Shown here: in pieces, positions 1 through 15,611 of the stretch
Numbering within the stretch: the stretch's first letter is position 1
Layout: the number at the start of each line of letters is the position of its first letter
IMG/VR virus record: IMGVR_UViG_3300029733_000039
Location: 1 to 15,611 of that record
Source of the DNA: a virus
Lineage: Duplodnaviria; Heunggongvirae; Uroviricota; Caudoviricetes
Strand: one strand, 5' to 3'
DNA: 15,611 nucleotides
The notes under the pieces: model-generated
What the model was told of the DNA's origin: nothing
Databases searched by the model: none
Seen by the model: only the letters and a program-made list of their open reading frames with translations
Translations under genes and position numbers: made by a program

Positions 1-508
1 CATCCACCCCCTGCGCCCGGACTTCAGCCAGGAAAGCATCAGTGGTTGGCGTTTCAGGTATCTGTCTCCTCATCCGTTCTATTGCATGATTGAACCCGAA
101 GTCTTCCGCGAGAGATACGTCATCCATATTGTCATTGTCATCCTCAATATCCCGTGATTTTGGAATTGCAGACTTTATTCCCGCATTCTCAGCAGCCAGC
201 GCCGCGCACTTGGCCTCAAGAGCGGCAACCACTTCCTGATGGTCTTTGTACTTAACGTATGAGCCGGAGATGTCATCACCTTCGGTGTTTAGCCATGCGT
301 CATTGCAATTCACTGCGTAGGTTCTGATGCTGATGCTCTCCCGCCCCTGACAGACGCCAGGCCAGTCAATAAAGTATCCGCAATGCCTACCCTCAGACGT
401 GCGCGCAGGATAAATGCCGTTATGACCCGGCAAAATATATGCTACCCATTCATCTTGCGTTGCCTGTTCCGCCGCCTCGCGCAGTTCTTGATAGTCAATC
501 TTGCTCAC
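1..508 (-). CDS. Early-left operon protein, possibly Ead/Ea22-like; N-terminus complete, C-terminus beyond the window edge
   Basis: Minus-strand frame open from the window edge to a GTG at 508..506, preceded by AGGAGG (complement of 515..520) at 6-nt spacing. The GTG overlaps the TGA stop of the upstream gene (GTGA), indicating translational coupling. The family name is from memory of similar prophage proteins, not a search. Confidence 0.4.
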   Translation of the reverse strand, partial: MSKIDYQELREAAEQATQDEWVAYILPGHNGIYPARTSEGRHCGYFIDWPGVCQGRESISIRTYAVNCNDAWLNTEGDDISGSYVKYKDHQEVVAALEAKCAALAAENAGIKSAIPKSRDIEDDNDNMDDVSLAEDFGFNHAIERMRRQIPETPTTDAFLAEVRAQGVD

Positions 509-855
509 TGGTTGCCTCCTTTGCGAATCTGTTCCGCCCATTCTTCTAGGGATTTCTCCGCATATTCACCGGACAGGCCATCAATCGGGTGTGGTTCATT
601 AGCCAACTCTTCTTTCGCTGACAGAATCATGCGTGTAACGTCGAAAACTTCACGTAAAGACTTATTGATAAATCCGTGATTGAAAGCCGCAGCAAGACGG
701 CTTGCGGTATAGTTAATACCCTCGTTGCGAGCCTCAGCACGTACTTCATCGAATTTACGCACCAGATACTCAGCATTTGTTTCATTCACTTTCAGATCTC
801 GTGGTACACATTTCCCGCGAAGAAACCCTTCCATTTCGAAAACATTCATGCGCAT
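505..855 (-). CDS. Hypothetical phage early protein, 116 aa, in the position of YfdS
   Basis: ORF-track frame 505..855 on the minus strand. ATG at 855..853 with GGAG about 9 nt upstream. Overlaps the upstream YfdR-like gene by 10 nt and is coupled (GTGA) to the downstream gene. No recognisable motif; named by position only. Confidence 0.5.
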   Translation of the reverse strand: MRMNVFEMEGFLRGKCVPRDLKVNETNAEYLVRKFDEVRAEARNEGINYTASRLAAAFNHGFINKSLREVFDVTRMILSAKEELANEPHPIDGLSGEYAEKSLEEWAEQIRKGGNQ

Positions 856-1382
856 TTGCGTAACTCCGATAACTCGTTAAAACGTTCCATAAACATCCCG
901 TAGGCATGGCCTGGCGACAGTGGAATCACTTTGAACATCTCTGTTGCCGGGATACCTTCCAGTACAGGCCAGAAAGAGCTATCATCAAGCCCGAGATCGC
1001 GGCGTTCGGTTGCCAGCATGATGAGATCGGCATATTTCACGGGCGTGCTCATAACCGGGGGTAACCCGTATTTCTCACGGATTACGGCGTCTATTTTTTC
1101 TTCCATCCGTTTATAGTCAGGAAGAAGGCGTTTCAGTGGAGCGGGAATATCCTGGCAATACGCTTCTGTTGCATCATGCATTAACGCTTCAAAAGCAAAT
1201 TCCTGCGGCACCAGCTGGCTGCAAAGCACCGCATGTTGGGCGACACTGTAGAAGTGAGAAAGATGACCGGCAAAGCGGCAGATATTTGAAAGGGAAACCG
1301 CGATATCGTTAATCACGATGTCGTCTTTATTTATCCTGTCATAATAAAAATGCTTCCCGGAAAAAGTTTTAATAAATGACAT
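846..1382 (-). CDS. yfdR: HD-domain phosphohydrolase, YfdR-like 5'-deoxynucleotidase, about 179 aa
   Basis: The ORF track gives 846..1445; the preferred start is the internal ATG at 1382..1380 (MSFIKTF...), which has a GGAGAA RBS. The protein contains an HD-type motif (ALMHDATEAY) and histidines consistent with a metal-dependent phosphohydrolase. Size and synteny (after a YfdQ-like gene) match CPS-53 YfdR. Symbol assigned by synteny and length, not by sequence search. Confidence 0.6.
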   Translation of the reverse strand: MSFIKTFSGKHFYYDRINKDDIVINDIAVSLSNICRFAGHLSHFYSVAQHAVLCSQLVPQEFAFEALMHDATEAYCQDIPAPLKRLLPDYKRMEEKIDAVIREKYGLPPVMSTPVKYADLIMLATERRDLGLDDSSFWPVLEGIPATEMFKVIPLSPGHAYGMFMERFNELSELRKCA

Positions 1383-1510
1383 TTTGTTCTCCACTTTATA
1401 TGCGCTGCACCGCGCTGAATTTTGGTTAAAGAAAACCCTCGCCATCAGGCGATTATTGAGTCAATTATGTTTCCATAAATGCCCCCGCAGGGGCATTTGC
1501 AGTAATGAAA

Positions 1511-2335
1511 TCAGGCGGTGAAAGTACCAATAAAGGTTTCTACTTTGCTGTCTTTAAATTTCTCAACAAGCAGATCACGAAATTCGTTAGCCATTTCTTC
1601 CTGCACTGCTTCCAGCTGAATAATGCGCAGAACCAGTACAGGACGATCGCCAGTGATAATGCTGAGGCGTAATTTAAACGGACGTTCTTTCAGGCCTTCA
1701 AACGGAACGCATTTAAATTTAAATGCCACTGGCATAATATCTTTGGTCTTCGCTTCGACAGACTCCATCAGGGAGCGTTTGCCGCTGAAGTCATTATCTT
1801 CAAAATCAGCGGTCTGGTTCGCTTCAATTGTGATTTTACGGACCGCCGCAGCCGCTTTTGTTGCCTTAATAGCGTCACCATTAGCATCAAAGCCCACAAG
1901 ATAGTCGGCCCAGTCTTCAATCCATTCTGCCAGTGACTTCTGGGAGTTACGCTCGCCGTTAACAGACAACAGAGCAGAGAACGGTGCTGTCTTTTTCAGT
2001 TTGAGTGTGGCGGTGTTATCTGCGTGACCTGGTTCACCAATAGTACCCAGGTTAAGCACACTGACGGCACGCATATTATCGGCATCGATAAAGCAGCGGG
2101 TGCCTTCATCTGCAAGATCTTTAGAATAACGGGTAAAGTCATCGATGCTGGCAGTGGAAAGCGCACCACGGAAACGGAAGCGATTTAAATTAAATTTTTC
2201 CAGATCATGAATGCGGAAATTCTCAGGCAATGCCACAGCATCGGCACCAATCTTACTGATAATTTCATTAACACCCTGAGCAGAAATAAGGGCATGGATT
2301 TGATTAATTGCGGTTGCGTCTAAGTTCTGAGACAT
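1511..2335 (-). CDS. yfdQ: YfdQ-like protein (DUF2303 family), 274 aa
   Basis: Clean 274-aa minus-strand ORF with a GAGGA RBS 7 nt upstream of the ATG at 2335. Length is identical to E. coli K-12 CPS-53 YfdQ and it sits in the YfdP-YfdQ-YfdR order. Function unknown. Confidence 0.6.
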
Positions 2336-2400
2336 AATAAGTCCTCACTATATTAAGATATTCAGTGATGAGATAAATAATCAGTTAATTAAGAACGATA

Positions 2401-2763
2401 TTAATGACCTGCTGCGCGGAGTTTTCCGTCAGGTTCACCGGCAAGAGTCAGTAATTGTCCCTGGTCTTCCTGCAGAATAGTCAGGCGACCACCTCGATTG
2501 ACATACATCGGCGTTTCGGTGGTGTCTTCTTCGGAGATTTTCCCGCGGTTAGTCGGGCGAACATATGAGAGTTTGTGTTTGATTTTCACACGGTTCTCAT
2601 CAAACGGTTCGATGTCCAGATTGACCGAGACTTTACCTTTGTTTTTCGTGTTCATCACACCGGAAGCGACTTCACTGAGAACTGCGCCGAGTTTGGTTTC
2701 AAATACGCCGCCGTCCAGTTCTACGATAAATACCTGCACATCAGTACTGCGTACGCTAGCCAT
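2401..2763 (-). CDS. yfdP: YfdP-like hypothetical protein, 120 aa
   Basis: The ORF track gives 2401..2949; the preferred start is the ATG at 2763..2761 (MASVRSTDVQ...), which has a strong GAGGAG RBS. This gives 120 aa, the length of K-12 YfdP. The upstream 62-codon extension has no RBS and overlaps structured leader sequence. Confidence 0.55.
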   Translation of the reverse strand: MASVRSTDVQVFIVELDGGVFETKLGAVLSEVASGVMNTKNKGKVSVNLDIEPFDENRVKIKHKLSYVRPTNRGKISEEDTTETPMYVNRGGRLTILQEDQGQLLTLAGEPDGKLRAAGH

Positions 2764-2900
2764 TTTGCTGCTCCTCATCATACCGACCCTGCAAGGTCGG
2801 TTGGTTTCTCCACAAAACAGAGAAGAACACCTGCGGTGACAGCCGCCCGGATGGATTGGGTTATGAGCCCGTCGTCCGGTGATGCTCTTCTCTGTTTTGT

Positions 2901-2962
2901 AAAAAGAGCGGTACCAGCCGGAAGCAAGTGTACAAACTGGTACCGCCAAAGCAGTGGCTGTT
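2901..2962 (-). ncRNA. dicF: DicF-like small RNA with intrinsic terminator
   Basis: The minus-strand sequence UUUGGCGGUACCAGUUU matches the DicF core as I recall it (UUUGGCGGUAUCAGUUU) at 16 of 17 positions. It is followed by an 11-bp terminator stem (5' arm 2947..2937, 3' arm 2917..2907, including one G-U pair) with a 19-nt loop and a UCUUUUU tract (2907..2901). It lies in the early-left leader downstream of the repressor gene, as dicF does in Qin. The 5' end is not determinable from sequence. Confidence 0.5.
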
Positions 2963-3439
2963 GTGGTGCCGGTGCTGATCTCCGGCTTGCGGTTATTTCA
3001 GACTCTCACGGGCGTTTGATTGCCCCGCCGAACAGCTCTTTTCCGCAATAGCCGCAATGTCTTTCGCGCATCAGCCTGCGCATTCACCACAACGCTGAGA
3101 GCATTGCCGGTGTCCGAATCGAACGGACCTTTTCCCTGCCCAACCCTCCCATCTGAATGGGACTGTCTGGAATTGAACCAGCACTTATGCCTTGCTCGTC
3201 AATGCTCTCATCGTTGCGTCCTGGTCTCTTCCCAGGCGTCAAACCGAATCGCCACGCTGGTTAGGCGTCTTATCAGCATCATCATTGACTTGCACATTCC
3301 GGCTACCTGGTTTGTTTGCCCGAGCAAGGAGTGGATTGTCCCCTTTAACGTCCCCAGACCGCTAACGACGCATGTGCCATACGCCGTGTTACAACCAAAT
3401 TTTGTTTAATCTTGCCTGTGGCATGTTTCTTTTAGATAC

Positions 3440-3467
3440 ATTATGTATCTCAAGGGTACATTGTCAA
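3440..3467 (-). promoter_or_regulatory. Candidate PL early-left promoter with operator half-site
   Basis: On the minus strand: TTGACA (complement of 3462..3467), a 16-nt spacer, then CATAAT (complement of 3440..3445). A GGGTACA motif shared with the OR operator lies in the spacer. Inference only. Confidence 0.35.
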
Positions 3468-3470
3468 GTA

Positions 3471-3494
3471 TAAAAAAACCTGCCGAAGCAGGTT
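3471..3494 (-). terminator. Rho-independent terminator after the repressor gene
   Basis: Minus-strand hairpin AACCUGC-UUCG-GCAGGUU followed by a U7 tract, 12 nt downstream of the CI stop codon. Confidence 0.6.
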
Positions 3495-3505
3495 ATAAAT
3501 ATTGA

Positions 3506-4180
3506 TTAGGCCTTTATTTTGTATCTTCTTGGTTTTCCTGAGAAAATTACTGTACCAATTATAGAGCAATTACCGTTAATCTTAATGTAAGGCTCAGGCC
3601 AGTTTGGGTTTAATGCTTTGAGATAACGCTGTGTTCCATCTTCTATCAATCGCTTGAAGGTGGTTTCGCCTGTATCGTGCATCAATGCAATAACGTCGTC
3701 ACCGTGGCAGGCAGGGACTTCGGGATCAACAAAAATCATGTCTCCCGGGCGGTACTCATCAATCATTGAATCACCAATCACCCGCAAGATATAAGTCATT
3801 TCGCCACAGGGTACAGGGCAGGGATAAGTTTCTGCTGTGCTCAAATCAACCTCAGAATAGCCAACTTCTTTCCATGCTCCGGCCTGTACCCATGATATGA
3901 CAGGGACTAACGTTATTTGTTTGTTAGTAATTGAAACATCAGGTTTTTTTGTGATGTTTGTTGTCTGGTGTTCTTGATCAAGCCATCCGACAGGCAGGTC
4001 GAAACATTTTTCGATGTGCCGTGCCATGCTGTCACCGATATTTTTAGTAGCACCATCTCCCATAAACCTGCTGGTCTGGGTTGGCTCGCGATCAATCATG
4101 GTGGCAAAGGAAGAATTCCCGCCAACACCATCTCTCAGTTTTCTGGCGTTAGACCGCCGGATGTCATGGACTGTTTTCAT
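3506..4180 (-). CDS. CI-like phage repressor with C-terminal S24 (LexA-type) autopeptidase domain
   Basis: 224-aa ORF divergent from the cro-like gene. The C-terminal half has the S24 Ser-Lys dyad signature (VIGDSM ... TFKRL). The N-terminal part is consistent with a DNA-binding domain. A terminator follows directly. Confidence 0.85.
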   Translation of the reverse strand: MKTVHDIRRSNARKLRDGVGGNSSFATMIDREPTQTSRFMGDGATKNIGDSMARHIEKCFDLPVGWLDQEHQTTNITKKPDVSITNKQITLVPVISWVQAGAWKEVGYSEVDLSTAETYPCPVPCGEMTYILRVIGDSMIDEYRPGDMIFVDPEVPACHGDDVIALMHDTGETTFKRLIEDGTQRYLKALNPNWPEPYIKINGNCSIIGTVIFSGKPRRYKIKA

Positions 4181-4197
4181 AACGAAATTAAAACCTT

Positions 4198-4216
4198 TGT
4201 ACCGATAGGGTACAAG
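4198..4216. promoter_or_regulatory. Operator-like palindrome (OR) in the cI-cro divergent region
   Basis: Inverted repeat TTGTACC-GATAG-GGTACAA sits just upstream of the PR -35. The GGGTACA half-site recurs at the candidate PL near 3451..3460. Confidence 0.5.
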
Positions 4217-4220
4217 TATC

Positions 4221-4248
4221 TTGAAGGTTCATCTCAATCATGTAATAT
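4221..4248 (+). promoter_or_regulatory. Candidate PR promoter
   Basis: TTGAAG (4221..4226), 16-nt spacer, TAATAT (4243..4248). GGAGG RBS at 4256..4260 and cro ATG at 4271. Confidence 0.5.
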
Positions 4249-4270
4249 GTATATCGGAGGTACATATTGT

Positions 4271-4471
4271 ATGAAAGCGTATTGGGACTCTTTAACCAAA
4301 GAACAGCAGGGCGAGTTGGCCGGAAAAGTTGGCTCAACACCAGGCTACTTACGGCTGGTTTTCAATGGTTATAAAAAAGCCAGTTTTGTGCTGGCTAAAA
4401 AACTTGAGCAATGCACGTCAGGTGCAATTACGAAATCTGACTTAAGACCGGATATCTATCCGAAAGATTAA
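4271..4471 (+). CDS. Cro-like small DNA-binding protein, YdaS family, 66 aa
   Basis: ATG at 4271 preceded by GGAGG. The protein ends with a LRPDIYPKD motif reminiscent of YdaS/Cro-like proteins. The track ORF 3968..4471 is a long N-terminal extension through the repressor gene and is rejected. Confidence 0.7.
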   Translation: MKAYWDSLTKEQQGELAGKVGSTPGYLRLVFNGYKKASFVLAKKLEQCTSGAITKSDLRPDIYPKD

Positions 4472-4502
4472 CAGAACACCTTCAATTTTTAACCACAGAA
4501 CG

Positions 4503-5072
4503 ATGAGGCTAACCGTGGGTAAGCATCACTGGAAAGTAGAAAAACAGCCTGAGTGGTACGTGAAAGCTGTCAGAAAAACTATCGCGGCGTTGCCGGGGGG
4601 TTACGCTGAAGCTGCTGAGTGGCTGGATGTAACAGAGAACGCTTTATTCAACCGCCTTCGTGCAGATGGCGATCAGATTTTCCCGCTGGGATGGGCAATG
4701 ATTTTACAGCGCGCGGCTGGCACTCACTACATTGCGGATGCTGTCGCACAGTCTGCTGGTGGGGTGTTTGTATCGCTTCCTGAAATTGAGGAAGTAGAGA
4801 ATGCCGATATAAACCAGCGCCTGCTGGAAGTCATCGAACAGATCGGGAGTTACTCAAAGCAGATTCGTTCGGCAATCGAAGATGGGGTAGTGGAGCCACA
4901 CGAGCAGACAGCAATTAATGATGAGTTGTATCTGTCAATTTCGAAGCTCCAGGAGCATGCAGCACTGGTCTACAAAATCTTTTGCGCTCCAGAAAAGAGT
5001 GACGCCCGCGAGTGTGCAGCTCCGGGCGTCGTGGCGTCGATTGCTTCTGGTTGTGGAGAAACTAACGCATGA
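4503..5072 (+). CDS. YdaT-like / CII-position regulatory protein, 189 aa
   Basis: First gene downstream of cro in the PR operon. Family resemblance to YdaT (structurally CII-like) is from memory. An alternative GTG start at 4515 has a GAGG RBS. The stop overlaps the next ATG (ATGA). Confidence 0.5.
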   Translation: MRLTVGKHHWKVEKQPEWYVKAVRKTIAALPGGYAEAAEWLDVTENALFNRLRADGDQIFPLGWAMILQRAAGTHYIADAVAQSAGGVFVSLPEIEEVENADINQRLLEVIEQIGSYSKQIRSAIEDGVVEPHEQTAINDELYLSISKLQEHAALVYKIFCAPEKSDARECAAPGVVASIASGCGETNA

Positions 5073-6865
5073 ATAGTTTAACGGCAAATAACCGTTTGTC
5101 GCAACAGCTGGTGGTCAGCGTCGCTGAACACCTGTTGTTACGGCATGAATGCAGATTACCAAATCACCTGGCTGTAAGTAACCACAGAGAACTTTACCTG
5201 ACTGTGGGGGGCGAGTTGTGCAGGAACTTAACCGCTGGTTTCGTGACGGAAGAGGGCTTTATGTCCATGTTATTCGTTGGGAGCCAGAAACACAGCGCGT
5301 TATCTATCTTCGCAAAGACTACCCGCATGAGTGCTTTAGTCCTTTGTGGAAATTCAGGCGTGATTTTGTTGAGTGTGAAGGACCACCAGCATATTGATTC
5401 TGCCATTCCGGGACGTTACACTGTTCAGGCACCTTATAAAGCGGGTGCCGGGATTGGCGTCCTGAAATTGTCAACGGCGATGTATGACGCGCCAGCGTCT
5501 TTTTTATCGTCCGCATTTGCTCACATCCAGATAATGGTGGGCTGGGCGGGGGCACCGAAAGGTGCGCCGGTCTCCGTTGACGCCGGTTACGCCAACCCCG
5601 TCCAGTTCACCACCAGTGAAATTGGCGTTTCCGGTGGTGGAAGTTTTTCACTGTCAACGGAGGCTGCCATCATGGCTACGATCCCAGCCCTCACTCAACC
5701 TGAAATCACCATTGACAACGGCCAGGCCGTTACCACTTCTTTGGCTGTTGCCAACTCCTTCTCCAAGCGTCACGACGATGTGCTGAAAAAGATCCGCACT
5801 CTGGATTGTTCCCCTGAGTTTTGTGCCCGCAATTTTGCGGAGACATCGATTTCGGTAAATCAACCGAACGGTGGTACACGCAAGCTCCCTTGCTATCAAA
5901 TCACACGAGACGGTTTTGCGTTTCTTGCTATGGGTTTCACGGGTAAACGTGCTGCCCGGTTCAAAGAGGCATACATCAATGCCTTTAACCAGATGGAGAA
6001 ACGCTGCATTACGGCGTTATCCCTTTTTGACTATCTCCGCTTGTTGCGCCTTGCTGGTGTTCCGGGTTATATTTCTCGCGTTGCTGTAAATCCAGCAACC
6101 GGGTTTAGCAGCCCGGAACACATCACAGCGCACAACCGCGCCTGCGGTTTTTTTGTGTGCAATGCCCGGTCACATCTGAATTATGGTGGCCTGGGTAGGG
6201 GAGCCGAAAGGCTCGCCGGGTTCTGTGATGACCGGTCTGCTAACCCTGCTCAGGTTACCACCAGTTGTTTAGCAGCAGCTTGTGGTGATAAGTCAAAACT
6301 CATCACAGGGGCTGTCGTTATGACTACCATCCCAACCCTCGCTCAACCTGAACTTTGTGTTATTGATGGCAAAGTCGTTACTTCTTCGCTGGCTGTTGCC
6401 GATTATTTCCATAAACCCCACAAAGACGTACTGGCAAAAATTTCTCGTCTGGATTGTTCCGTCGAATTTACCGAGCGAAATTTCTCGCTCAGCAAATACA
6501 CCGATGTAACAGGGCGTAAGTTGCCGTGTTATCACATCACTAAAAATGGCTTCGCGTTCCTAGCTATGAGTTTTACAGGCAAGCGAGCGGCTCGTTTTAA
6601 AGAGGTGTACATAAACGCCTTTGACCAGATGGAAAATCAACTTTCAAATCCTTCTAGGTTGAATGACGTCGCACATAACGCCAGCGTTCTCTATTCCTAC
6701 ATTTCATCAATTCATCAGGTCTGGCTGCAGCAGCTTTATCCCATGTTGGCAAAAGCCGAATCCCCGCTGGCTGTAAGTCTGTATGACCGCATCAACGACG
6801 CGGCGCTACTGGCCAGTCTCATAAATTTGTCGCTGAATCCTTCAGAGGTAAGGGGGCGCAAATGA
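5069..6865 (+). CDS. 598-codon ORF with two tandem Rha (phage regulatory protein / antirepressor-like) domains; gene model uncertain
   Basis: Single open frame 5069..6865. Two Rha-type domains (TTSLAVA ... LPCY.ITRDGFAFLAM.FTGKRAARFKE.YINAF.QME) begin at in-frame ATGs 5672 and 6320, each with its own RBS (GGAGG at 5659..5663; AGGGG at 6306..6310). The first 200 codons have no recognisable domain. Internal nucleotide-level elements (see findings) suggest the real products may be shorter, for example 5672..6865 or 6320..6865. Confidence 0.5.
   Translation: MNSLTANNRLSQQLVVSVAEHLLLRHECRLPNHLAVSNHRELYLTVGGELCRNLTAGFVTEEGFMSMLFVGSQKHSALSIFAKTTRMSALVLCGNSGVILLSVKDHQHIDSAIPGRYTVQAPYKAGAGIGVLKLSTAMYDAPASFLSSAFAHIQIMVGWAGAPKGAPVSVDAGYANPVQFTTSEIGVSGGGSFSLSTEAAIMATIPALTQPEITIDNGQAVTTSLAVANSFSKRHDDVLKKIRTLDCSPEFCARNFAETSISVNQPNGGTRKLPCYQITRDGFAFLAMGFTGKRAARFKEAYINAFNQMEKRCITALSLFDYLRLLRLAGVPGYISRVAVNPATGFSSPEHITAHNRACGFFVCNARSHLNYGGLGRGAERLAGFCDDRSANPAQVTTSCLAAACGDKSKLITGAVVMTTIPTLAQPELCVIDGKVVTSSLAVADYFHKPHKDVLAKISRLDCSVEFTERNFSLSKYTDVTGRKLPCYHITKNGFAFLAMSFTGKRAARFKEVYINAFDQMENQLSNPSRLNDVAHNASVLYSYISSIHQVWLQQLYPMLAKAESPLAVSLYDRINDAALLASLINLSLNPSEVRGRK
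5486..5615 (+). repeat. Copy 1 of a conserved structured module (terminator-like hairpin plus multi-stem element) upstream of Rha domain 1
   Basis: Hairpin GACGC-GCCA-GCGTC plus T6 (5486..5505). Then outer stem GGTGG (5536..5540) / CCACC (5610..5614), a 10-bp stem 5542..5551 / 5596..5605, a GAAA-loop hairpin 5552..5565, and a CCGG/CCGG hairpin with 12-nt loop 5567..5586. Confidence 0.6.
6134..6263 (+). repeat. Copy 2 of the same structured module, upstream of Rha domain 2
   Basis: Hairpin AACCGC-GCCT-GCGGTT plus T-run (6134..6154). Outer stem GGTGG (6185..6189) / CCACC (6258..6262), stem 6191..6200 / 6244..6253, GAAA-loop hairpin 6201..6214, CCGG/CCGG hairpin 6216..6235. Several base pairs differ from copy 1 by compensatory changes. 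Copy 2 is 1 nt shorter, so the 5' part is read in a different frame from copy 1. Confidence 0.6.
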
Positions 6866-7086
6866 TCCGGAATATTTTCAAACGGTTTACCAATCATACT
6901 TTCCGTTGTCCTCGTCCGGGTCAGTGGTACACCACGCCTGCAGGGCATGTTCTACGTGTTAGCCTGGTTGACCGTGAATGTCAGAAGGTGGTTTGTGAAC
7001 CGCTGGGCCGTAATTACCGCGTCAGTATGCCGCTTATAGCCTTTTGCTCCGGAAAAATGTTTAAGCGTCTGGGAGGTGTGGCGTGA
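6862..7086 (+). CDS. Hypothetical small protein, 74 aa
   Basis: ATG overlaps the stop of the Rha ORF (ATGA). Cys-containing (possible small metal-binding protein); no recognisable family. Confidence 0.45.
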   Translation: MIRNIFKRFTNHTFRCPRPGQWYTTPAGHVLRVSLVDRECQKVVCEPLGRNYRVSMPLIAFCSGKMFKRLGGVA

Positions 7087-7382
7087 ACTGTTTTCAGTTT
7101 GTGTGCGGATGTGCTTTCGATAACCCGATTCAGCGCCTGATTATGTTGCGTGTTTTGATGTCGGGTTCTTCAGACGGTGAAGGCGAGAGAGTTATTGATC
7201 ATCAGGTGCTTGCTGATTTCTGCTGTTGTTCTAAGCAAGCGATATTCAGGGAAACCCTGGCACTGGAAAGAGCTGGTTATCTTCATATCCGAAAAATTGC
7301 AACGCTTACTATTGATGCAAAAGCCAGACTACAACCTGCGCGTGGCTACACAATTCTCATGCTGCGGAAGGAGGTTGTATGA
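7083..7382 (+). CDS. Hypothetical small protein, 99 aa, possible helix-turn-helix
   Basis: GTG start overlapping the upstream stop (GTGA). Its stop overlaps the O-like ATG (ATGA). Weak HTH-like segment (QAIFRETLALERAGYLHIRK). Confidence 0.45.
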   Translation: MNCFQFVCGCAFDNPIQRLIMLRVLMSGSSDGEGERVIDHQVLADFCCCSKQAIFRETLALERAGYLHIRKIATLTIDAKARLQPARGYTILMLRKEVV

Positions 7383-8386
7383 GCCGTTACGCCCCCACAC
7401 CGGAAGTTATGGCTATTGGTCAAATTAATATTTCCGGCAATGTTACACCTGCGACCTGGTGGAAATATATTCGACTACCCAGTGGGCGTCCGGATGCGAC
7501 GGCTATCGCTCTGCTTTCAGAGATCGTTTACTGGTACCGCCCGACAGAGGTCAGGGATGAGCACACCGGAGCGTTGCTGGGATATCGCAAGCGTTTTCAG
7601 GGCGACAAACTGCAAAGAAGCTACCAGGCGTTTGCTGAGCAGTTTGGTTTCGGGAAAAGGGAAACCGCAGATGCGCTGAAGCGTCTGCGCGATGCAGGGT
7701 TTATTACTCTGGATTTACGCACGGTGGAAATGCTCGATGGGGTGAAATGCAGCAATATTTTGTTTGTCGGGATCAACCCACAGGCAATTGCGGCCATCAC
7801 CACACCTTCTTCTGTTTCGCCAGAAAGTAACAGCAATAATGCAATCAGCGATACAGCTATTACGTTAAAACGGAACACCCCCCGACGTCATAACGGAACA
7901 GGGGATACGCCGAATGTTGATACAAATACAGAGATTACTACAGAGATTACTACAGAGATTACTACAGAGATTACAACGGAGACTAAAAACACTATTGGCG
8001 CATCCGCTGACGCGTCTGCACCAGCGCGTTCTGCCAGACAGGAATATTCACCGGAATTTGAACAGGCCTGGCAGGAATATCCCAAACGTGCTGGTGGTAA
8101 TTCAAAATCCGCCGCTTTTAAAGCCTGGAAAGCCCGAATCAGGGAAGGTGTGACACCCGAAACCATGCTCGACGGTGTGAAACGCTATGCCGCCTGGGTG
8201 CGTGTCTCTGGAAATACCGGTACCCAGTTCGTGAAGCAGGCGTCGACGTTCTTTGGTCCGGATCGTCATTTCGAAGAATCCTGGGAAGTTCCTGCGGTAT
8301 CTGCAGTCAGACGCGAGGACCCGTACTTCAAATCCAGTTACGACAACGTGGACTACAGCCAGATCCCGGCAGGATTCAGGGGGTGA
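7379..8386 (+). CDS. Replication initiator (lambda O-like / replisome organizer) with internal iteron-encoded TEIT repeats
   Basis: 335-aa ORF in the O position of the PR operon. The central linker TEITTEITTEITTEITTE is encoded by tandem 12-bp repeats, as with the iteron-bearing origin inside lambda O. Synteny corresponds to CPS-53 yfdO, which is a fragment in K-12. Confidence 0.7.
   Translation: MSRYAPTPEVMAIGQINISGNVTPATWWKYIRLPSGRPDATAIALLSEIVYWYRPTEVRDEHTGALLGYRKRFQGDKLQRSYQAFAEQFGFGKRETADALKRLRDAGFITLDLRTVEMLDGVKCSNILFVGINPQAIAAITTPSSVSPESNSNNAISDTAITLKRNTPRRHNGTGDTPNVDTNTEITTEITTEITTEITTETKNTIGASADASAPARSARQEYSPEFEQAWQEYPKRAGGNSKSAAFKAWKARIREGVTPETMLDGVKRYAAWVRVSGNTGTQFVKQASTFFGPDRHFEESWEVPAVSAVRREDPYFKSSYDNVDYSQIPAGFRG
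7928..7975 (+). repeat. Four tandem 12-bp direct repeats (ACAGAGATTACT), candidate origin iterons
   Basis: Perfect or near-perfect 12-bp repeats at 7928, 7940, 7952 and 7964, with a degenerate fifth. They lie inside the O-like gene. Confidence 0.6.
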
Positions 8387-8388
8387 TC

Positions 8389-8877
8389 ATGAGTCTGTTA
8401 AATGACGTTCAGAAATTCATTGAAGCCCATCCGGGGTGTACTTCCGGAGACATTGCGGATGCTTTTACAGGTTACTCACGGCAGCGCGTTCTGCAGTCAG
8501 CAAGCAAGTTACGTCAGAGTGGGCGTGTGGCTCACCGTTGTGAAGGAGATACACGCAGACATTTCCCGCGCCTGACTGAGAGAGCGCAGGAACCGGAACC
8601 ACAACCAGTTCGTGAAACCAGACCTGTGCGCAATTTCTATGTCGGCACTAACGACCCGCGGGTGATTTTGTGCCTGACCCGCCAGGCTGAAGAACTGGAG
8701 TCCAGGGGCTTATACCGTCGTGCTGCAACGGTGTGGATGGCGGCATTCCGTGAAAGCCACTCCCAGCCAGAACGAAACAATTTTCTGGCACGTCGTGAGC
8801 GGTGCTTACGGAAAAGCAGCAAGCGCGCTGCATCGGGTGAAGAGTGGTATCTGTCAGGGAATTTCGTGGGGGCTTAA
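8389..8877 (+). CDS. YfdN-like phage protein, about 162 aa
   Basis: The track ORF starts at GTG 8383; the preferred start is ATG 8389, which has an AGGGGG RBS. The start region overlaps the O-like stop. Its TAA overlaps the next ATG (TAATG). Function unknown; the C-terminal region is Arg-rich. Confidence 0.55.
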   Translation: MSLLNDVQKFIEAHPGCTSGDIADAFTGYSRQRVLQSASKLRQSGRVAHRCEGDTRRHFPRLTERAQEPEPQPVRETRPVRNFYVGTNDPRVILCLTRQAEELESRGLYRRAATVWMAAFRESHSQPERNNFLARRERCLRKSSKRAASGEEWYLSGNFVGA

Positions 8878-9530
8878 TGAGTAATAAATATTGCCAGGCG
8901 CTGGTGGAACTGCGGAACAAACCAGCCCATGAACTGAAGGAAGCGGGCGATCAGTGGCGCACGCCGGACAACATTTTCTGGGGAATTAACACTCTGTTTG
9001 GCCCGTTTGTTCTGGATCTGTTTACTGACGGTGATAACGCCAAATGTGCTGCGTATTACACGGCGGAAGACAACGCGTTGGCGCATGACTGGTCAGAACG
9101 CCTTGCGGAGCTTAAAGGTGCTGCCTTTGGTAATCCCCCATACAGCCGCGCCAGTCAGCATGAGGGGCAATACATCACCGGCATGCGTTACATCATGAAG
9201 CATGCCAGTGCCATGCGTGATAAAGGCGGGCGCTATGTTTTCCTGATCAAAGCTGCCACCAGCGAAGTGTGGTGGCCGGAAGATGCAGATCATATTGCTT
9301 TTATTCGCGGGCGTATTGGTTTTGAACTGCCTGCCTGGTTTATCCCGAAAGACGAAAAGCAGGTGCCAACAGGTGCTTTCTTCGCTGGTGCTATTGCTGT
9401 TTTCGACAAGACCTGGAAGGGAGCGGCAATCAGCTACATCGGGCGCGATGAACTTGAGGCATGTGGTGAGGCATTTCTGGCGCAGGTTCGCCAGCAGGCG
9501 GAAAAACTGGTCAGGGAGATGGCGGCATGA
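8877..9530 (+). CDS. Phage N6-adenine DNA methyltransferase (Dam-like, YfdM-type)
   Basis: Contains the catalytic motif GNPPYS (NPPY). Start ATG 8877 is coupled to the upstream stop. The track ORF 8844 is an N-terminal over-extension. Confidence 0.8.
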   Translation: MSNKYCQALVELRNKPAHELKEAGDQWRTPDNIFWGINTLFGPFVLDLFTDGDNAKCAAYYTAEDNALAHDWSERLAELKGAAFGNPPYSRASQHEGQYITGMRYIMKHASAMRDKGGRYVFLIKAATSEVWWPEDADHIAFIRGRIGFELPAWFIPKDEKQVPTGAFFAGAIAVFDKTWKGAAISYIGRDELEACGEAFLAQVRQQAEKLVREMAA

Positions 9531-9853
9531 CGACATTAACTCAATGCCAGCAGCAGGTGCTGGATATGCTGATTTCTTATCAGAAAGAACGTGGCTTCCC
9601 GCCAACCAATCAGGAGGTGGCAACCATGCTGGGATACCGTTCGGTGAATGCAGCGGTGGAGCATCTTCGCGCACTGGAGAAAAAAGGTGTCATCACGATA
9701 AAGCGTGGCGTGGCCCGGGGTATCACTCTTCATACCGCGGTGAAGGACGACGACAGCGAGGCGGTCGGGATTATCCGCGCCCTGCTTGCCGGTGAGGCAA
9801 ACGCCAGGCTGCGTGCAGCCCACTGGTTACATGAGAGGGGCCTGAAAGTATGA
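9527..9853 (+). CDS. LexA N-terminal DNA-binding-domain homolog lacking the S24 cleavage domain, 108 aa
   Basis: The N-terminal 70 aa aligns by eye with the E. coli LexA winged-HTH domain (MTTLTQCQQQVLDML...GFPPTNQEVATMLGYRSVNAAVEHLRALEKKGVI versus MKALTARQQEVFDLI...[34 protein letters not shown]). There is no Ser-Lys protease domain. ATGA overlaps on both sides. Confidence 0.7.
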   Translation: MTTLTQCQQQVLDMLISYQKERGFPPTNQEVATMLGYRSVNAAVEHLRALEKKGVITIKRGVARGITLHTAVKDDDSEAVGIIRALLAGEANARLRAAHWLHERGLKV

Positions 9854-10245
9854 AGCTAATACTGCCTTTTCCGCCCAGCGTGAACACGTACTGGCGACAC
9901 CCCAACAAAGGGGCGTTTGCTGGTAAGAGCCTGATAAGCGCGGCGGGGCGAAAATTCCAGAGCGCGGCGTGTGCAGCAATAGTTGAGCAGTTACGTCGTC
10001 TGCCGAAACCAACGTCGGCACCTGCTTCAGTGGAGATCGTGTTGTTTCCTCCGGATAACCGGATCCGCGATCTGGACAACTATAACAAGGCGCTGTTTGA
10101 CGCCCTGACCCACGCGGGTGTGTGGGAAGACGACAGCCAGGTGAAAAGAATGCTGGTGGAGTGGGGACCGGTTATCCCGGAAGGGAAGGTCGAGATCACT
10201 ATCAGTAAGTACGAAAAAGCGAGTTGCAAATTAGCAACTCGGTAA
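9850..10245 (+). CDS. rusA: RusA-family Holliday junction resolvase
   Basis: 131-aa protein with the RusA core (RIRDLDNYNKALFDALTHAGVWEDDSQV, matching the conserved acidic residues). Last gene of the coupled operon. Confidence 0.85.
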   Translation: MKLILPFPPSVNTYWRHPNKGAFAGKSLISAAGRKFQSAACAAIVEQLRRLPKPTSAPASVEIVLFPPDNRIRDLDNYNKALFDALTHAGVWEDDSQVKRMLVEWGPVIPEGKVEITISKYEKASCKLATR

Positions 10246-10290
10246 CGGAATTGAGCAACACCCTAAATTTGGGTATTACCTCGTTAAAGA

Positions 10291-10310
10291 TACTGTATTT
10301 ATGAACAGTG
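10291..10310. promoter_or_regulatory. LexA box (SOS operator) upstream of the KilA-N / DUF968 / Q gene block
   Basis: TACTGTATTTATGAACAGTG fits the consensus TACTG-(TA)5-CAGTA, with CTG and CAG at canonical spacing. It lies in the 160-bp intergenic region after rusA. A candidate promoter is TTGAGC (10252..10257), 17-nt spacer, TATTAC (10275..10280). Confidence 0.6.
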
Positions 10311-10407
10311 TATCCTTGATAACTATTAAAAATCGCAGTAAGTTCATCCTGCATCAACGAAAAGGGAGTGCAGTCCCGCTCGTGGATAAAAATTTGTGGA
10401 GAAACCA

Positions 10408-11223
10408 ATGAATCAGTTGCTTGTAATTGATGGCGTTTCTGTGCGCCAGTACTTCGAATCTAACTACTGTCTTAACGACCTTCAGAAAGCTGCTCTTCTT
10501 GCCGCTGGTGAGAATCGCTCCTCCCGTTCGCTGGAAGTTCACGAGTTTATGCGTCGTCCTGAAACGAAGGCTCTTGTGGAATTATTGGAAGAAGAAACTA
10601 CGGGAGATTCCCGTAGTATTCCTGTCATCACCATTCAGGGGCGCAATGGTGGGACGTATGTCTGTAAAGAGCTGGTCTATGCATATGCAATGTGGATCAG
10701 CCCGGCATTCAGCTTAAAAGTGATACGTACTTTTGATGCGCTTCATAATTCATCACCAGAAGAAACCACATCCGACAAAATTAAATCCGGGGTCATTCTG
10801 CTTGAATCAGCAGCAAAGACTCTAAATCTGTCAAACTCCTCGAAACTTGGTGCATACCAGAAATTATCAAAGGTAGCTGGTCTTCCTGAACTTATGCCGA
10901 TCTATGCCATTGATGCACCTGCTGATGCGCCAGATGGTTCAAGCCGCCCTACGCTGTCGCTGAGTGCACTGCTGAAGCAGTATGGTATCCGCCTGACGGC
11001 TAATCAGGCATATCACCAGATGGCGAAGCTGGGGATCGTTGAACAACGCGAACGATACAGCCGTACCGCGATTAACAACATCAAAAAATTCTGGTCGCTG
11101 ACAGCGAAAGGCTGCATGTTCGGCAAGAACATCACCAGTCCTGCAAATCCGCGCGAGACGCAGCCGCATTTCTTCGAATCCCGATTCCCTGAGCTGTTAA
11201 AGCTGCTCGATACCGTTCATTGA
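10408..11223 (+). CDS. KilA-N domain protein (antirepressor-like / DNA-binding)
   Basis: N-terminal KilA-N-like region (VCKELVYAYAMWISPAFSLKVIRTFD). Preferred start is ATG 10408, with a GGAG RBS 7 nt upstream. The track start 10396 is less likely. Confidence 0.65.
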   Translation: MNQLLVIDGVSVRQYFESNYCLNDLQKAALLAAGENRSSRSLEVHEFMRRPETKALVELLEEETTGDSRSIPVITIQGRNGGTYVCKELVYAYAMWISPAFSLKVIRTFDALHNSSPEETTSDKIKSGVILLESAAKTLNLSNSSKLGAYQKLSKVAGLPELMPIYAIDAPADAPDGSSRPTLSLSALLKQYGIRLTANQAYHQMAKLGIVEQRERYSRTAINNIKKFWSLTAKGCMFGKNITSPANPRETQPHFFESRFPELLKLLDTVH

Positions 11224-11224
11224 G

Positions 11225-12220
11225 GTGACCGTGAGAGCACTACTGACCCCTGAAATCGCCCCGCGTATGGGGATCGTATTGTTCAGGCCAGGTTCAGAGC
11301 TGATGCCCCTGTTTATGCAGGGGCGTGTCCTGCTGGAGCCTGAGCCGGAACGTTATTCATCTTTTGCCAGTGGTGCCGTTCCGGCATCATCACAACCGCT
11401 GGCGGATGATCCTGCCGTTCGGGCCGTGTTCCGCCATGAGGCGGTGATCCGTCGTGCTGGTGGCGTGGAATGCCTTGAGAGCTGGTTACTTCGTGAAAAG
11501 GGCTGTCAGTGGCCTCATTCCGACTGGCACAGCGAGAACATGACCACAATGCGGCACGCGCCAGGCGCAATCCGTCTGTGCTGGCACTGTGACAATCTTC
11601 TCCGTGACCAGTTCACGGAACGGCTGGAAGCAATGGCAACGGATAACTGTGCCCGCTGGGTGTTGTCTGTTGTGCGCCGTGATCTTGGTTTTGATGACAG
11701 TCACGTTGTGACAATGCCGGAACTGTGCTGGTGGCTGGTTCGTAATGACCTGGCGGATGCTTTACCGGAAAGTGCAGCCCGTAAGGCCCTGAGATTACCG
11801 AAGCCTGTTTTGCCGTCTGTCACCCGGGAGAGTGACCTTGTACCTTCGGTTACTGCCACCAGTATTATCCGGGATAAAGCGAAAAAGGTGCTGGCGCTGA
11901 AAGTGGATCCGGAGTCGCCGGAGTCTTTTATGTTACGCCCCAAACGTCGTCGCTGGGTTAATGAAAAGTACACTCGCTGGGTTAAGACGCAGCCGTGTGC
12001 ATGTTGTGGAAAGCCAGCTGATGATCCGCATCATCTGATTGGTCACGGCCAGGGTGGTATGGGGACAAAAGCGCATGATCTCTTTGTGTTGCCTTTGTGC
12101 AGAAAACACCATGACGAACTGCATGTGGATACCGTGGCATTTGAAGAGAAGTATGGTTCCCAACTGGAGCTGATATTTCGTTTTATCGATCGCGCACTGG
12201 CGATTGGTGTGCTGTCCTGA
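11225..12220 (+). CDS. DUF968-family phage protein (YdfU-like) with C-terminal Cys/His cluster
   Basis: 331-aa ORF with GTG start. The C-terminus (CACCGKPADDPHHLIGHG ... CRKHHDELH) looks like an HNH / zinc-binding motif. Family assignment is from memory. Confidence 0.6.
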   Translation: MTVRALLTPEIAPRMGIVLFRPGSELMPLFMQGRVLLEPEPERYSSFASGAVPASSQPLADDPAVRAVFRHEAVIRRAGGVECLESWLLREKGCQWPHSDWHSENMTTMRHAPGAIRLCWHCDNLLRDQFTERLEAMATDNCARWVLSVVRRDLGFDDSHVVTMPELCWWLVRNDLADALPESAARKALRLPKPVLPSVTRESDLVPSVTATSIIRDKAKKVLALKVDPESPESFMLRPKRRRWVNEKYTRWVKTQPCACCGKPADDPHHLIGHGQGGMGTKAHDLFVLPLCRKHHDELHVDTVAFEEKYGSQLELIFRFIDRALAIGVLS

Positions 12221-12237
12221 TTTTGTGGAGAAAGTTG

Positions 12238-12630
12238 ATGCGTGATATTCAGATGGTTCTTGAACGCTGGGGGGCATGGGCGGCAAGTGGTAACACCGGG
12301 GTGGACTATTCTCCGATAGCTGCTGGATTTAAAGGCCTTTTACCATCCACCGCTAAACCTCGCCCGGCCTGCAGCGATGATGACGGCCTTATCATCGAAA
12401 ACTGCCTTACGCGCCTGAAGAAGAAAAAACCGGACGAGTATTCGCTGCTGGTAGCTCATTATCTGCTGCGCATATCAAAAAGGCAGATTGCCAGAACAAG
12501 AAAGAAGAGCGAAAAGGCAATACGAATTGAGATGCAGATTGCTGAAGGATTTATTGACGGATGTCTGTCGATGCTGGGTGTAAGGCTGGAGATGGACGAC
12601 TGGCTGCCCAAAAAAGTAAAAAATGATTAG
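12238..12630 (+). CDS. Late-gene antiterminator Q (phage 21/82-type, QuuD-like)
   Basis: The N-terminus MRDIQMVLERWGAWAA... matches the characteristic start of Q antiterminators of this type as recalled. ATG 12238 has a GGAG RBS. The track TTG start at 12223 is less likely. A terminator follows. Confidence 0.75.
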   Translation: MRDIQMVLERWGAWAASGNTGVDYSPIAAGFKGLLPSTAKPRPACSDDDGLIIENCLTRLKKKKPDEYSLLVAHYLLRISKRQIARTRKKSEKAIRIEMQIAEGFIDGCLSMLGVRLEMDDWLPKKVKND

Positions 12631-12690
12631 CGCGGTCCGCAAAAAGTATGTCAGTATGTTAAGAGTGGTTACTACGCCACACAACTTAAA

Positions 12691-12712
12691 CCCGCCGCCT
12701 GGCGGGTTTTTT
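12691..12712 (+). terminator. tR'-like intrinsic terminator downstream of Q
   Basis: CCCGCC-GCCT-GGCGGG followed by T6, about 60 nt after the Q stop, as expected for a late-promoter / tR' arrangement. The late promoter itself could not be pinned down. Confidence 0.7.
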
Positions 12713-12831
12713 ATGACTGAAATCGCATCAGTACAGTAAACGTGCTGGTGGTGAATACCTGTCTTTCAGCTTGCTGGCTTTTTAGACAAGAGTTATTGGT
12801 ATGTCACGTTAACCGGAAAAGGGAAAAAGAC

Positions 12832-13029
12832 ATGCTAAAACAGCAGGATATGACAGAAACCGCCAGAGTGGTGTTTAATGAATTAAGCGTCACCTACCCG
12901 GCGACAGTCGGGGAGATTGCGCAGAATACTTACCTTTCACGCGAACGCTGCCAGTTAATACTGACCCAGCTGGTTATGGCGGGTCTGGCAGACTATCAGT
13001 TCGGTTGTTACAGACGCCTTCCGCAGTGA
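12832..13029 (+). CDS. Small hypothetical protein, 65 aa, possible winged-helix regulator; cargo gene in the stx-equivalent position
   Basis: ATG 12832 follows a purine-rich stretch (AAGGGAAAAAGAC). The protein has an HTH-like segment (TVGEIAQNTYLSRERCQLILTQLVMAGL). Its stop lies inside a terminator hairpin. The track start 12742 is rejected as over-extended. Confidence 0.4.
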   Translation: MLKQQDMTETARVVFNELSVTYPATVGEIAQNTYLSRERCQLILTQLVMAGLADYQFGCYRRLPQ

Positions 13030-13040
13030 AGGCTTTTTTA
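13016..13040 (+). terminator. Intrinsic terminator at the end of the small cargo ORF
   Basis: GCCTTC-CGCAGT-GAAGGC followed by TTTTTT. Confidence 0.5.
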
Positions 13041-13358
13041 TTTGTGGTAAATGGGCGGCTGGTGGGTGTGGTGGTTGTTGCTTCCCCGTTGCTGAAAAAG
13101 AAAGCATCAGGCGATTAGCAGGGTATCAGTTACCCGTTGAAATTTTTAAATACCTCACAATTCAGGCGGTTGACTGTTGTCTGGTTTGCGGGGAGTTTGT
13201 TAAAAGAAACTGGCATGGTGAATCCCCCTGTGCGGAGGGGCAATCAGCAACTGGTGTTTTGTCACCGACCCTTATCCTTTCTGTGCGGGTTCAGGTGCTG
13301 ATACTGAACTCACCGGGAGGCACCCGGCACCATGCAATGGCACATAGCGCCACTCTCC

Positions 13359-13385
13359 AGCCCCTCTCCGGAGGGGCTTTCTTAT
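13359..13385 (+). terminator. Plus-strand intrinsic terminator in the non-coding cargo region
   Basis: AGCCCCTC-TCCG-GAGGGGCT followed by TTCTTAT. Confidence 0.5.
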
Positions 13386-13389
13386 GGAC

Positions 13390-13418
13390 AAAAAAAGCCC
13401 GCGCTGGGAGACGCGGGC
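13390..13418 (-). terminator. Minus-strand intrinsic terminator, convergent with the previous one
   Basis: On the minus strand: GCCCGCG-TCTCCCAG-CGCGGGC followed by U7. Confidence 0.5.
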
Positions 13419-13612
13419 GGCAAGGAATAAACAACAAAACGTGAAGTAATATTTCAGCTGGCGAATAATATCCGACAGTAATCACTCTGCGCAATAGCGC
13501 GGCCTTTTTCGTATTGCGGGCTGTAGTCTTCCTCCTGCCATTGTCCTGTAACTTCCGGACTTCAGCCCGTTCCCTCATCTGACTCACAACATTATCCCGA
13601 CCGGGAGGATTC

Positions 13613-15595: not shown

Positions 15596-15611
15596 CCGGC
15601 AAAAAAAACCG

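Follow-up and report, generated by a model that had tools for sequence, protein, structure and literature searches.

The question raised by this locus is why a structured module should stand twice, each time in front of an Rha domain, inside what reads as one uninterrupted coding sequence. The locus lies in a stretch of 15,611 nucleotides (nt) of caudoviral DNA, namely, positions 1 to 15,611 of the IMG/VR record IMGVR_UViG_3300029733_000039 (hereafter, the window), which is the early region of a lambdoid prophage. An earlier note, made from the sequence alone, had described two homologous units 648 nt apart, each leading into an Rha start codon (5672 and 6320), and had offered a cis-regulatory RNA, a processed RNA or a recombination-module boundary as possible explanations, without recognizing a known RNA family. 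Alignment of positions 5440-6010 with 6088-6660 bears out a tandem duplication of the leader together with the Rha domain with a period of 648 nt, and homologous cassettes indicate that a regulatory, probably processed RNA controlling Rha translation is right in kind. However, the RNA belongs to known families after all, since both copies score far above the gathering thresholds of the Rfam models for C4 and IsrK. With a probability of about 0.85, we conclude that both copies are complete IsrK-C4 immunity RNA cassettes of the P4/P1/Gifsy-1 type, each guarding an Rha (Bro-network) regulator gene in a lambdoid prophage. The RNA as such is ordinary, a phage switch in which a decoy (IsrK) and an antisense RNA (C4/CI) hold a gene of the anti-repressor type silent in the prophage, and what is unusual is only that two differently coded locks stand in tandem and are fused into a single reading frame.

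The approximately 80-nt element described earlier is the C4 antisense RNA. The gathering scores are 50 bits for IsrK (RF01394), 45 bits for C4 (RF01695) and 46.7 bits for c4-a1b1 (RF03163), and the C4 matches in both copies span the full model, positions 1-87 (scores and coordinates are given in Table 1). Each cassette has the same order of parts: a predicted promoter, an IsrK RNA that carries the boxes a1 and b1 and an intrinsic terminator, a C4 RNA with the boxes a' and b' exposed, and a leader with the boxes a2 and b2. The start of the unit had previously been placed too late, as IsrK begins at 5429, 7 nt downstream of the first predicted promoter, and at 6080, again with a predicted promoter just upstream. 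The two terminator-like hairpins noted before (5486-5499 and 6134-6149, each followed by a run of six to seven Ts in our terminator scan) are the IsrK terminators, and C4 RNA 1 has a tRNA-like 3' end after its outer stem (...ACCACCA). Both internal promoters are predicted from their position, their conservation and their likeness to Gifsy-1: the -10 region of the first (GTTACACTG) is kept in the leaders of most relatives, and the second resembles the isrK promoter of Gifsy-1.

The secondary structure attributed to the ~80-nt element was recovered in both copies, comprising a 17-base-pair outer stem, a 5-base-pair hairpin with a GAAA loop and a CCGG hairpin with a 12-nt loop, with minimum free energies of -52.2 and -46.9 kcal/mol that 0 of 200 shuffles equalled. 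The compensatory changes that had been read between the copies are likewise present in the alignment, namely, GCACC/GGTGC to GAGCC/GGCTC and GACGC/GCGTC to AACCGC/GCGGTT. The same holds across homologs: in a MAFFT alignment of 16 representative relatives, the C4 helices are 100% paired, with 9 of the 27 pairs changed on both sides. Since many G-U pairs occur on the plus strand, and since the plus strand folds at -52.2 versus -43.3 kcal/mol for the minus strand, the plus-strand RNA is taken to be the functional molecule.

The mechanism rests on six short complementary boxes, a1, b1, a', b', a2 and b2, which the earlier note had missed. By a reverse-complement search, a1/a'/a2 and b1/b'/b2 were found to be exactly complementary in both copies, the exact matches between C4 and the leader being 7 nt plus 10 nt in copy 1 and 7 nt plus 9 nt in copy 2. 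The code differs between the copies, the b box reading GTCAACGG(AG) in copy 1 and (T)CATCACAG in copy 2; cognate partners can form 7+11 and 7+9 Watson-Crick pairs, whereas crossed partners within the window form only 4+5 and 4+6. We then gathered 160 related IMG/VR loci by homology to the two Rha proteins of the window. C4 is present in every module of these loci, which yield 52 distinct leaders and 12 combinations of a'/b' loops, with at least 8 a-classes and 10 b-classes, and the boxes keep fixed positions in the collected leaders (a1 at -218, b1 at -203, a2 at -50 and b2 at -20). All six boxes co-vary among the 16 aligned relatives, with 91-100% of cells paired between the segments. For b'-b2, 99.4% of cells pair and 7 of the 10 base pairs show two-sided changes; for a1-a' and b1-b', the values are 97% and 100%, respectively, with two-sided changes in 13 of 15 pairs. 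For a'-a2, the value of 78-91% in the alignment is an underestimate because MAFFT sets a2 one column out of register in three classes, and a position-free box search was used beside the alignment for this pair. The observed covariation score was reached by 0 of 500 shuffles, sliding the partner columns drops pairing to 33-51%, and the pairing is cognate-specific across the a'/b' classes. Folds of the whole leaders contain competing cis pairings, of b'/a' with b2/a2 in copy 1 and of a1/b1 with a'/b' in copy 2, which echo structures A and B of Gifsy-1. Separately, the 2365 cassette of IMG/VR locus L094 shows weakened complementarity (5+5 pairs for a and 5+8 for b) and an odd spacing of 136 nt, and may be a decaying or hybrid lock.

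Table 1. Features of the two cassettes and their surroundings in the window
Feature	Position	Strand	Details
Predicted promoter, cassette 1	5394-5422	+	-35 TTGATT 5394-5399, 17-nt spacer, -10 TACACT 5417-5422
IsrK-like RNA 1 (P4 seqA region)	5429-5505	+	RF01394, 62.2 bits
Box a1, copy 1	5454-5460	+	TTGGCGT, hairpin loop of IsrK 1
Box b1, copy 1	5470-5477	+	GTCAACGG
C4/CI-type antisense RNA 1	5530-5617	+	RF01695, 80.7 bits; fold z = -4.6; covariation
Box b', copy 1	5572-5581	+	CTCCGTTGAC, in 12-nt loop of C4
Box a', copy 1	5589-5595	+	ACGCCAA, internal single strand of C4
Target region, cassette 1 (Rha leader)	5622-5662	+	Exact complementarity, covariation
Box a2, copy 1	5622-5628	+	TTGGCGT, Rha leader
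Box b2, copy 1	5653-5662	+	GTCAACGGAG, overlaps Shine-Dalgarno GGAGG 5659-5663
Rha domain 1	5672-5998	+	N-terminal Phage_pRha domain only (Pfam)
Predicted promoter, cassette 2	6044-6073	+	-35 TTGCGC 6044-6049, 18-nt spacer, -10 TATATT 6068-6073
c4-a1b1, copy 2	6067-6119		RF03163, 53.2 bits
IsrK-like RNA 2	6080-6154	+	RF01394, 70.8 bits
Box a1, copy 2	6105-6111	+	TTAGCAG
Box b1, copy 2	6121-6128	+	CATCACAG
C4/CI-type antisense RNA 2	6179-6265	+	RF01695, 83.3 bits; fold z = -4.7
Box b', copy 2	6223-6231	+	CTGTGATGA
Box a', copy 2	6237-6243	+	CTGCTAA
Target region, cassette 2	6269-6311	+	
Box a2, copy 2	6269-6275	+	TTAGCAG
Box b2, copy 2	6300-6308	+	TCATCACAG, abuts/overlaps Shine-Dalgarno AGGGG 6307-6311
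Rha protein 2	6320-6865	+	Full length, 181 amino acids from its own ATG (Pfam)
598-codon open reading frame	5069-6865	+	Spans both RNA cassettes and both Rha domains
DUF4222 gene	5218-5397	+	59 amino acids; Pfam 9.4e-14; frame differs from the 598-codon frame
cII/CP76-like gene	4503-5072		Precedes the 598-codon frame
S24 (LexA-type) repressor	3506-4180	-	
Q antiterminator gene	12223-12630		

Is the tandem arrangement itself functional? The relatives that match the window best, namely, the Escherichia coli prophages and phages of the mEp460, SfV, cdtI and e14-like kind, are 80-86% identical to it over the module and share one gene order (repressor - cro - ymfL - (DUF4222) - IsrK - C4 - Rha - replication), but they carry a single cassette, annotated as an Rha coding sequence (CDS) of 382-383 amino acids, where the window carries two. 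The window is also unusual in that only the N-terminal domain of Rha-1 is retained; cassette 2, joined to it in frame, takes the place of the C-terminal half and leaves 109 residues, compared with 181-187 amino acids in most relatives and 120 in some. This truncation could mean that the tandem is a dead recombination scar, left by unequal or illegitimate exchange between two heteroimmune phages and with cassette 1 idle. The distribution of the junction fits such an origin: in locus L085 it recurs behind a different first cassette, with a third cassette in addition, and in L047 it follows a 24-residue Rha stub, so that the left edge of cassette 2 acts like an end point of recombination; it was not found among 5,426 complete E. 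coli genomes, and a search of the GTDB species representatives with the exact 33-mer across the junction gave no hits. Yet neither cassette is damaged, since in both the cognate boxes are perfect, the terminators are in place and the Rfam scores are strong, and the exact product of 598 amino acids is encoded on at least 23 public metagenome and Logan contigs, so the junction is not an artefact. Moreover, intact arrays of two to three cassettes are common, occurring in 21 of the 160 IMG/VR loci, and every array member has a different b' loop, usually with a different a' too, in 10 of the 11 architectures inspected. Arrays of three cassettes were seen in L068 (1051/1707/2363), L052 (2360/3220/4068) and L085 (1727/2364/3644), with spacings of 637-1280 nt and mostly different codes, two adjacent cassettes of L052 sharing the same one. 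We therefore regard an idle scar as unlikely, and retain the reading of two working, differently coded cassettes. A third terminator-like hairpin (6000-6018, plus strand), AACGCTGCATTACGGCGTT followed by ATCCCTTTTT, lies inside the open reading frame (ORF) at the junction of Rha-1 and cassette 2.

The earlier note was correct that the whole region is a single ORF of 598 codons. Its ATG overlaps the stop codon of the cII/CP76-like gene (ATGA, 5069-5072), an overlap by which the two may be translationally coupled; it is in frame with both Rha start codons, and its product matches Phage_pRha (PF09669) with 191.5 bits in two domains, above the Pfam cut-off. We surveyed the 243 nt preceding the Rha ATG in 54 distinct leaders, and found the Rha frame free of stops in 52 of them, whereas the other two frames are free of stops in 0 and 4, respectively; the three frames contain 2, 221 and 125 stops in total. 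Length variants of the leader differ by multiples of 3, and the array members have an ATG of their own at -300, often with a good Shine-Dalgarno sequence, just upstream of the predicted promoter. Even in the window, where aligning the two copies opens a gap of 2 nt and another of 1 nt in copy 2, so that about 100 nt of homologous sequence are translated in another frame, as had been observed, the frame is restored before the ATG. On the other hand, differences between leaders of different specificity classes are spread flatly over the codon positions (271/277/256) and only 16% of the differing codons are synonymous, while in the first 50 Rha codons the differences number 81/37/167 and 56% are synonymous. 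By these patterns, the leader frame is under selection to stay open while its residues are free to vary. The previous claim that selection acts on RNA or DNA structure and not on protein is therefore too simple: the residues are unconstrained and the structure co-varies, as claimed, but the frame of the long ORF is itself kept open.

Alternatively, the long ORF might be an annotation artefact, the RNAs and two short Rha genes being the whole story and the G+C-rich RNAs being stop-free by chance. The lack of residue conservation and the shifted frame of copy 2 agree with this, as do the TGA by which orf45 of Gifsy-1 ends before anrP and the finding that a single 243-nt frame stays open in ~2-7% of shuffles; in addition, the N-terminal 110 codons overlap the DUF4222 gene, which is under purifying selection in another frame. 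However, chance would hardly open exactly the Rha frame in nearly all leaders, keep it through insertions and deletions, and supply array members with their own start signals, and P4 eta, of the same layout, is documented as a translated ORF (PMC10111431). We thus consider an artefact quite improbable and, by analogy, take the long ORF to be the counterpart of P4 eta.

The DUF4222 gene is context and lies outside the switch, its stop codon falling within the -35 element of promoter 1. DUF4222 is also found inside the annotated ymfM of the E. coli K-12 element e14 (L003, 3002-3181). Of the 74 differences that separate the window from K-12 here, 38 are at DUF4222 third codon positions, and 21 codons are synonymous in this frame, compared with 3 in the ymfM frame; since the synonymous-site signature sits in the DUF4222 frame, the conserved protein appears to be DUF4222. 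This result raises the question of what clones of the 'cell division inhibitor YmfM' express. For the same reason, we rejected residues 1-117 of the long ORF as a YmfM-like domain, K-12 YmfM having 33% identity to them by BLASTP.

A conventional multi-domain protein of 598 amino acids, with folded 'Ash' segments and incidental matches to RNA families, would account for the match of residues 117-212 to Phage_ASH (PF10554; 93.2 bits, 1.6e-26) in copy 1, and for the annotation of RefSeq relatives as single Rha proteins of 382 amino acids. Against it, the leader residues show no purifying selection, base pairs co-vary strongly even between segments ~170 nt apart, and in copy 2, where the homologous bases are in another frame, the Phage_ASH score falls to 19.6 bits, below the cut-off of 26, because of the frame shift. 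P4 suggests where such matches come from: its RefSeq record (NC_001609, L084) has a minus-strand CDS at 8168-8584, the 137-amino-acid 'cI gene product / transcriptional repressor', over the CI RNA, and this old 'cI' ORF matches Phage_ASH at 4.3e-16. The Ash match in the window is the translation of IsrK plus C4, and the family seems to have been built on translations of the IsrK/C4 region, as the P4 'cI' ORF overlies the CI RNA. Likewise, L001 (E. coli S1-CAM-02-A) and L002 (mEp460) have no IsrK or C4 annotation, the leader lying within the CDS of a 'Rha family phage regulatory protein' of 382-383 amino acids. Such a protein is accordingly very improbable, and whether or not Ash folds leaves the verdict unchanged, because the leader residues are unconstrained. 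Least credible of all is that the hairpins act as DNA, perhaps as a site of recombination or as an origin-like element, since, although the cassette edges match mosaic boundaries between phages, G-U pairs are conserved on the plus strand only, the minus strand folds much worse, and the terminator T-runs and the Shine-Dalgarno overlap make sense for RNA only.

With the IsrK-C4 cassette as the preferred reading, the switch would work as follows. In a lysogen, the internal promoter would be constitutive and most transcripts would stop at the IsrK terminator, as P1, P4 and Gifsy-1 suggest. Read-through RNA would be processed, as it is by RNase P in P1 and P4, and an RNA of ~80 nt, C4, would be released. 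RNase P processing of C4-type RNA in P1 and P4, with 3' trimming, leaves a mature RNA of ~77 nt. C4 would then pair with a2/b2 in cis or in trans, so that ribosome binding is blocked, Rha is silent and the untranslated RNA is terminated, whereas IsrK, which mimics the target, would titrate C4 and turn Rha on. Because the two copies carry different a/b codes, each C4 should control only its own Rha. Ribosomes that arrive on transcripts from the upstream early promoter would, as in P4 eta/kil, read across the terminators and the C4 folds, and the Rha domains would be expressed whatever the state of the RNA locks.

Several points weigh against this reading or parts of it. The promoters, the processing, the direction in which IsrK acts (as an activator, as in Gifsy-1) and the role of Rho are all argued from homology. 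A consensus promoter scan of positions 4100-7000 returned nothing at threshold, and the c4-a1b1 match in copy 1 (RF03163, 5416-5468) is below threshold at 21.6 bits. Rha-1, being without the usual C-terminal half, may be inactive. In copy 2, the conserved AUG at the 5' end of C4 is out of the Rha frame (137 nt, versus 138 or 141), so that coupling of the Gifsy-1 orf45 type cannot work alike in this copy. Finally, judging from the overlap with DUF4222, the long ORF may be fortuitous in the stretch that precedes about -300. As a broader proposal, the arrays of one to three IsrK-C4-Rha cassettes in the e14/SfV/mEp460 group might serve as combinatorial sets of orthogonal locks, with the stop-free frame, selected for being translatable, as a master override by which early-promoter transcripts would open every lock together, and with C4 silencing incoming phages or satellites that have matching targets. 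In the fused version of the window, a ribosome would then traverse the two terminators and the two C4 folds in one passage; we put this forward tentatively, and consider it doubtful in this full form.

Downstream of the long ORF, the window encodes replication genes, Dam, RusA, KilA-N and Q. Two further observations were made in this part. The replication/nin region has an ORF (8383-8877, plus strand) with a domain of PerC-type transcriptional activators (7.8e-09). Positions 13184-13389 (plus strand), some 550 nt beyond Q and upstream of a DUF1737/SASA esterase gene (13613-15595), match Rfam STnc100 strongly, with 143 bits; this match is probably a late-promoter leader RNA.

What appeared to be a new structured RNA thus belongs to a family already curated in Rfam, and its mechanism is known. 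The tandem, orthogonal and ORF-fused layout, together with selection on a frame but not on its residues, are modest extensions, undescribed for lambdoid phages in the searchable literature. They matter in three respects. The inspected RefSeq 'Rha family' CDSs and the Pfam Ash family conceal two unannotated small RNA genes; the collected a/b pairing codes form a natural catalogue of orthogonal pairs, possible parts for RNA-based gene control; and the data suggest that the translate-through override of immunity, described so far for P4, also operates in common E. coli prophages and in multi-cassette arrays.

Homologous cassettes have been studied experimentally in P4, P1/P7 and Gifsy-1 (PMC4825925, PMC10111431, PMC3632133), and the term 'IsrK-C4 immunity system' was used for lambdoid prophages by Barquist et al. 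(PMC3632133). The c4 RNA of P1/P7 immI, which controls icd-ant, belongs to the same Rfam family and clan as the C4 of the window, and is similarly co-transcribed with its target. Its a/b pairing and the heteroimmunity were reportedly described by Citron and Schuster in 1990. Unlike the window, P1 has a small gene, icd, between c4 and ant, and we know of no IsrK-type terminator or long spanning ORF in P1. In P1/P7, the a'/b' loops of c4 pair with a1/b1 upstream and with a2/b2 at the ribosome binding site, and differing a/b sequences result in heteroimmunity (PMC12197685).

Gifsy-1 of Salmonella has the same arrangement of IsrK (34240-34316) and C4 (34131-34214), directly upstream of a Bro-network regulator (IsrK - orf45/STnc1160 - AnrP), and C4 matches the very segment between IsrK and the anti-repressor gene anrP that was published as orf45/STnc1160 (Hershko-Shalev et al. 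2016, PMC4825925). It follows the same a/b logic, with the same a box as copy 1 of the window (TTGGCGT), has an AUG at the 5' end of the C4 fold like the window cassettes, and its promoter, TTGACA/TATATT, is in the same position as the promoters predicted here. In this prophage, a species of ~80 nt processed from the read-through transcript was detected, binding of IsrK to Hfq and trans-activation of the downstream gene were shown, and translation of anrP increased over 100-fold when IsrK was provided in trans; the authors linked STnc1160 to the P4 CI RNA, without naming the C4 family (PMC4825925). Gifsy-1 differs from the window in that AnrP has an ORF6N domain instead of Rha, that the TGA of orf45 overlaps the ATG of anrP whereas the window leader runs in frame, and that the locus follows the Q gene whereas the window cassettes lie in the immunity region.

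P4 offers the closest parallel for the long ORF. The seqA - CI RNA - seqC region of this satellite phage has both Rfam families, on one strand and in the order seen in the window, with C4 occupying 8420-8507 and IsrK 8615-8692. Both lie within an ORF (8168-8812) whose last part encodes the 65-amino-acid Kil. The box layout is like that of the window, one a-class (GTGAGAA/TTCTCAC) is shared, b2 likewise lies over the Shine-Dalgarno sequence, and the context from there to the ATG, GGAGGCTGCCATCATGGCTAC, is identical between P4 kil and Rha-1. The P4 ORF also begins before the internal promoter, with an overlap to the stop codon of the preceding gene, and shares its frame with kil (PMC10111431). 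According to Forti 1999, cited through the same source, translation of the long ORF suppresses termination, so that transcripts from the upstream promoter are insensitive to immunity. The two systems differ in that P4 has ~100 extra nt between seqA and CI, and guards Kil and then replication genes, whereas the window guards an Rha-domain regulator in a lambdoid immunity region; and where P4 has a single cassette, the window has two, differently coded and fused in one ORF.

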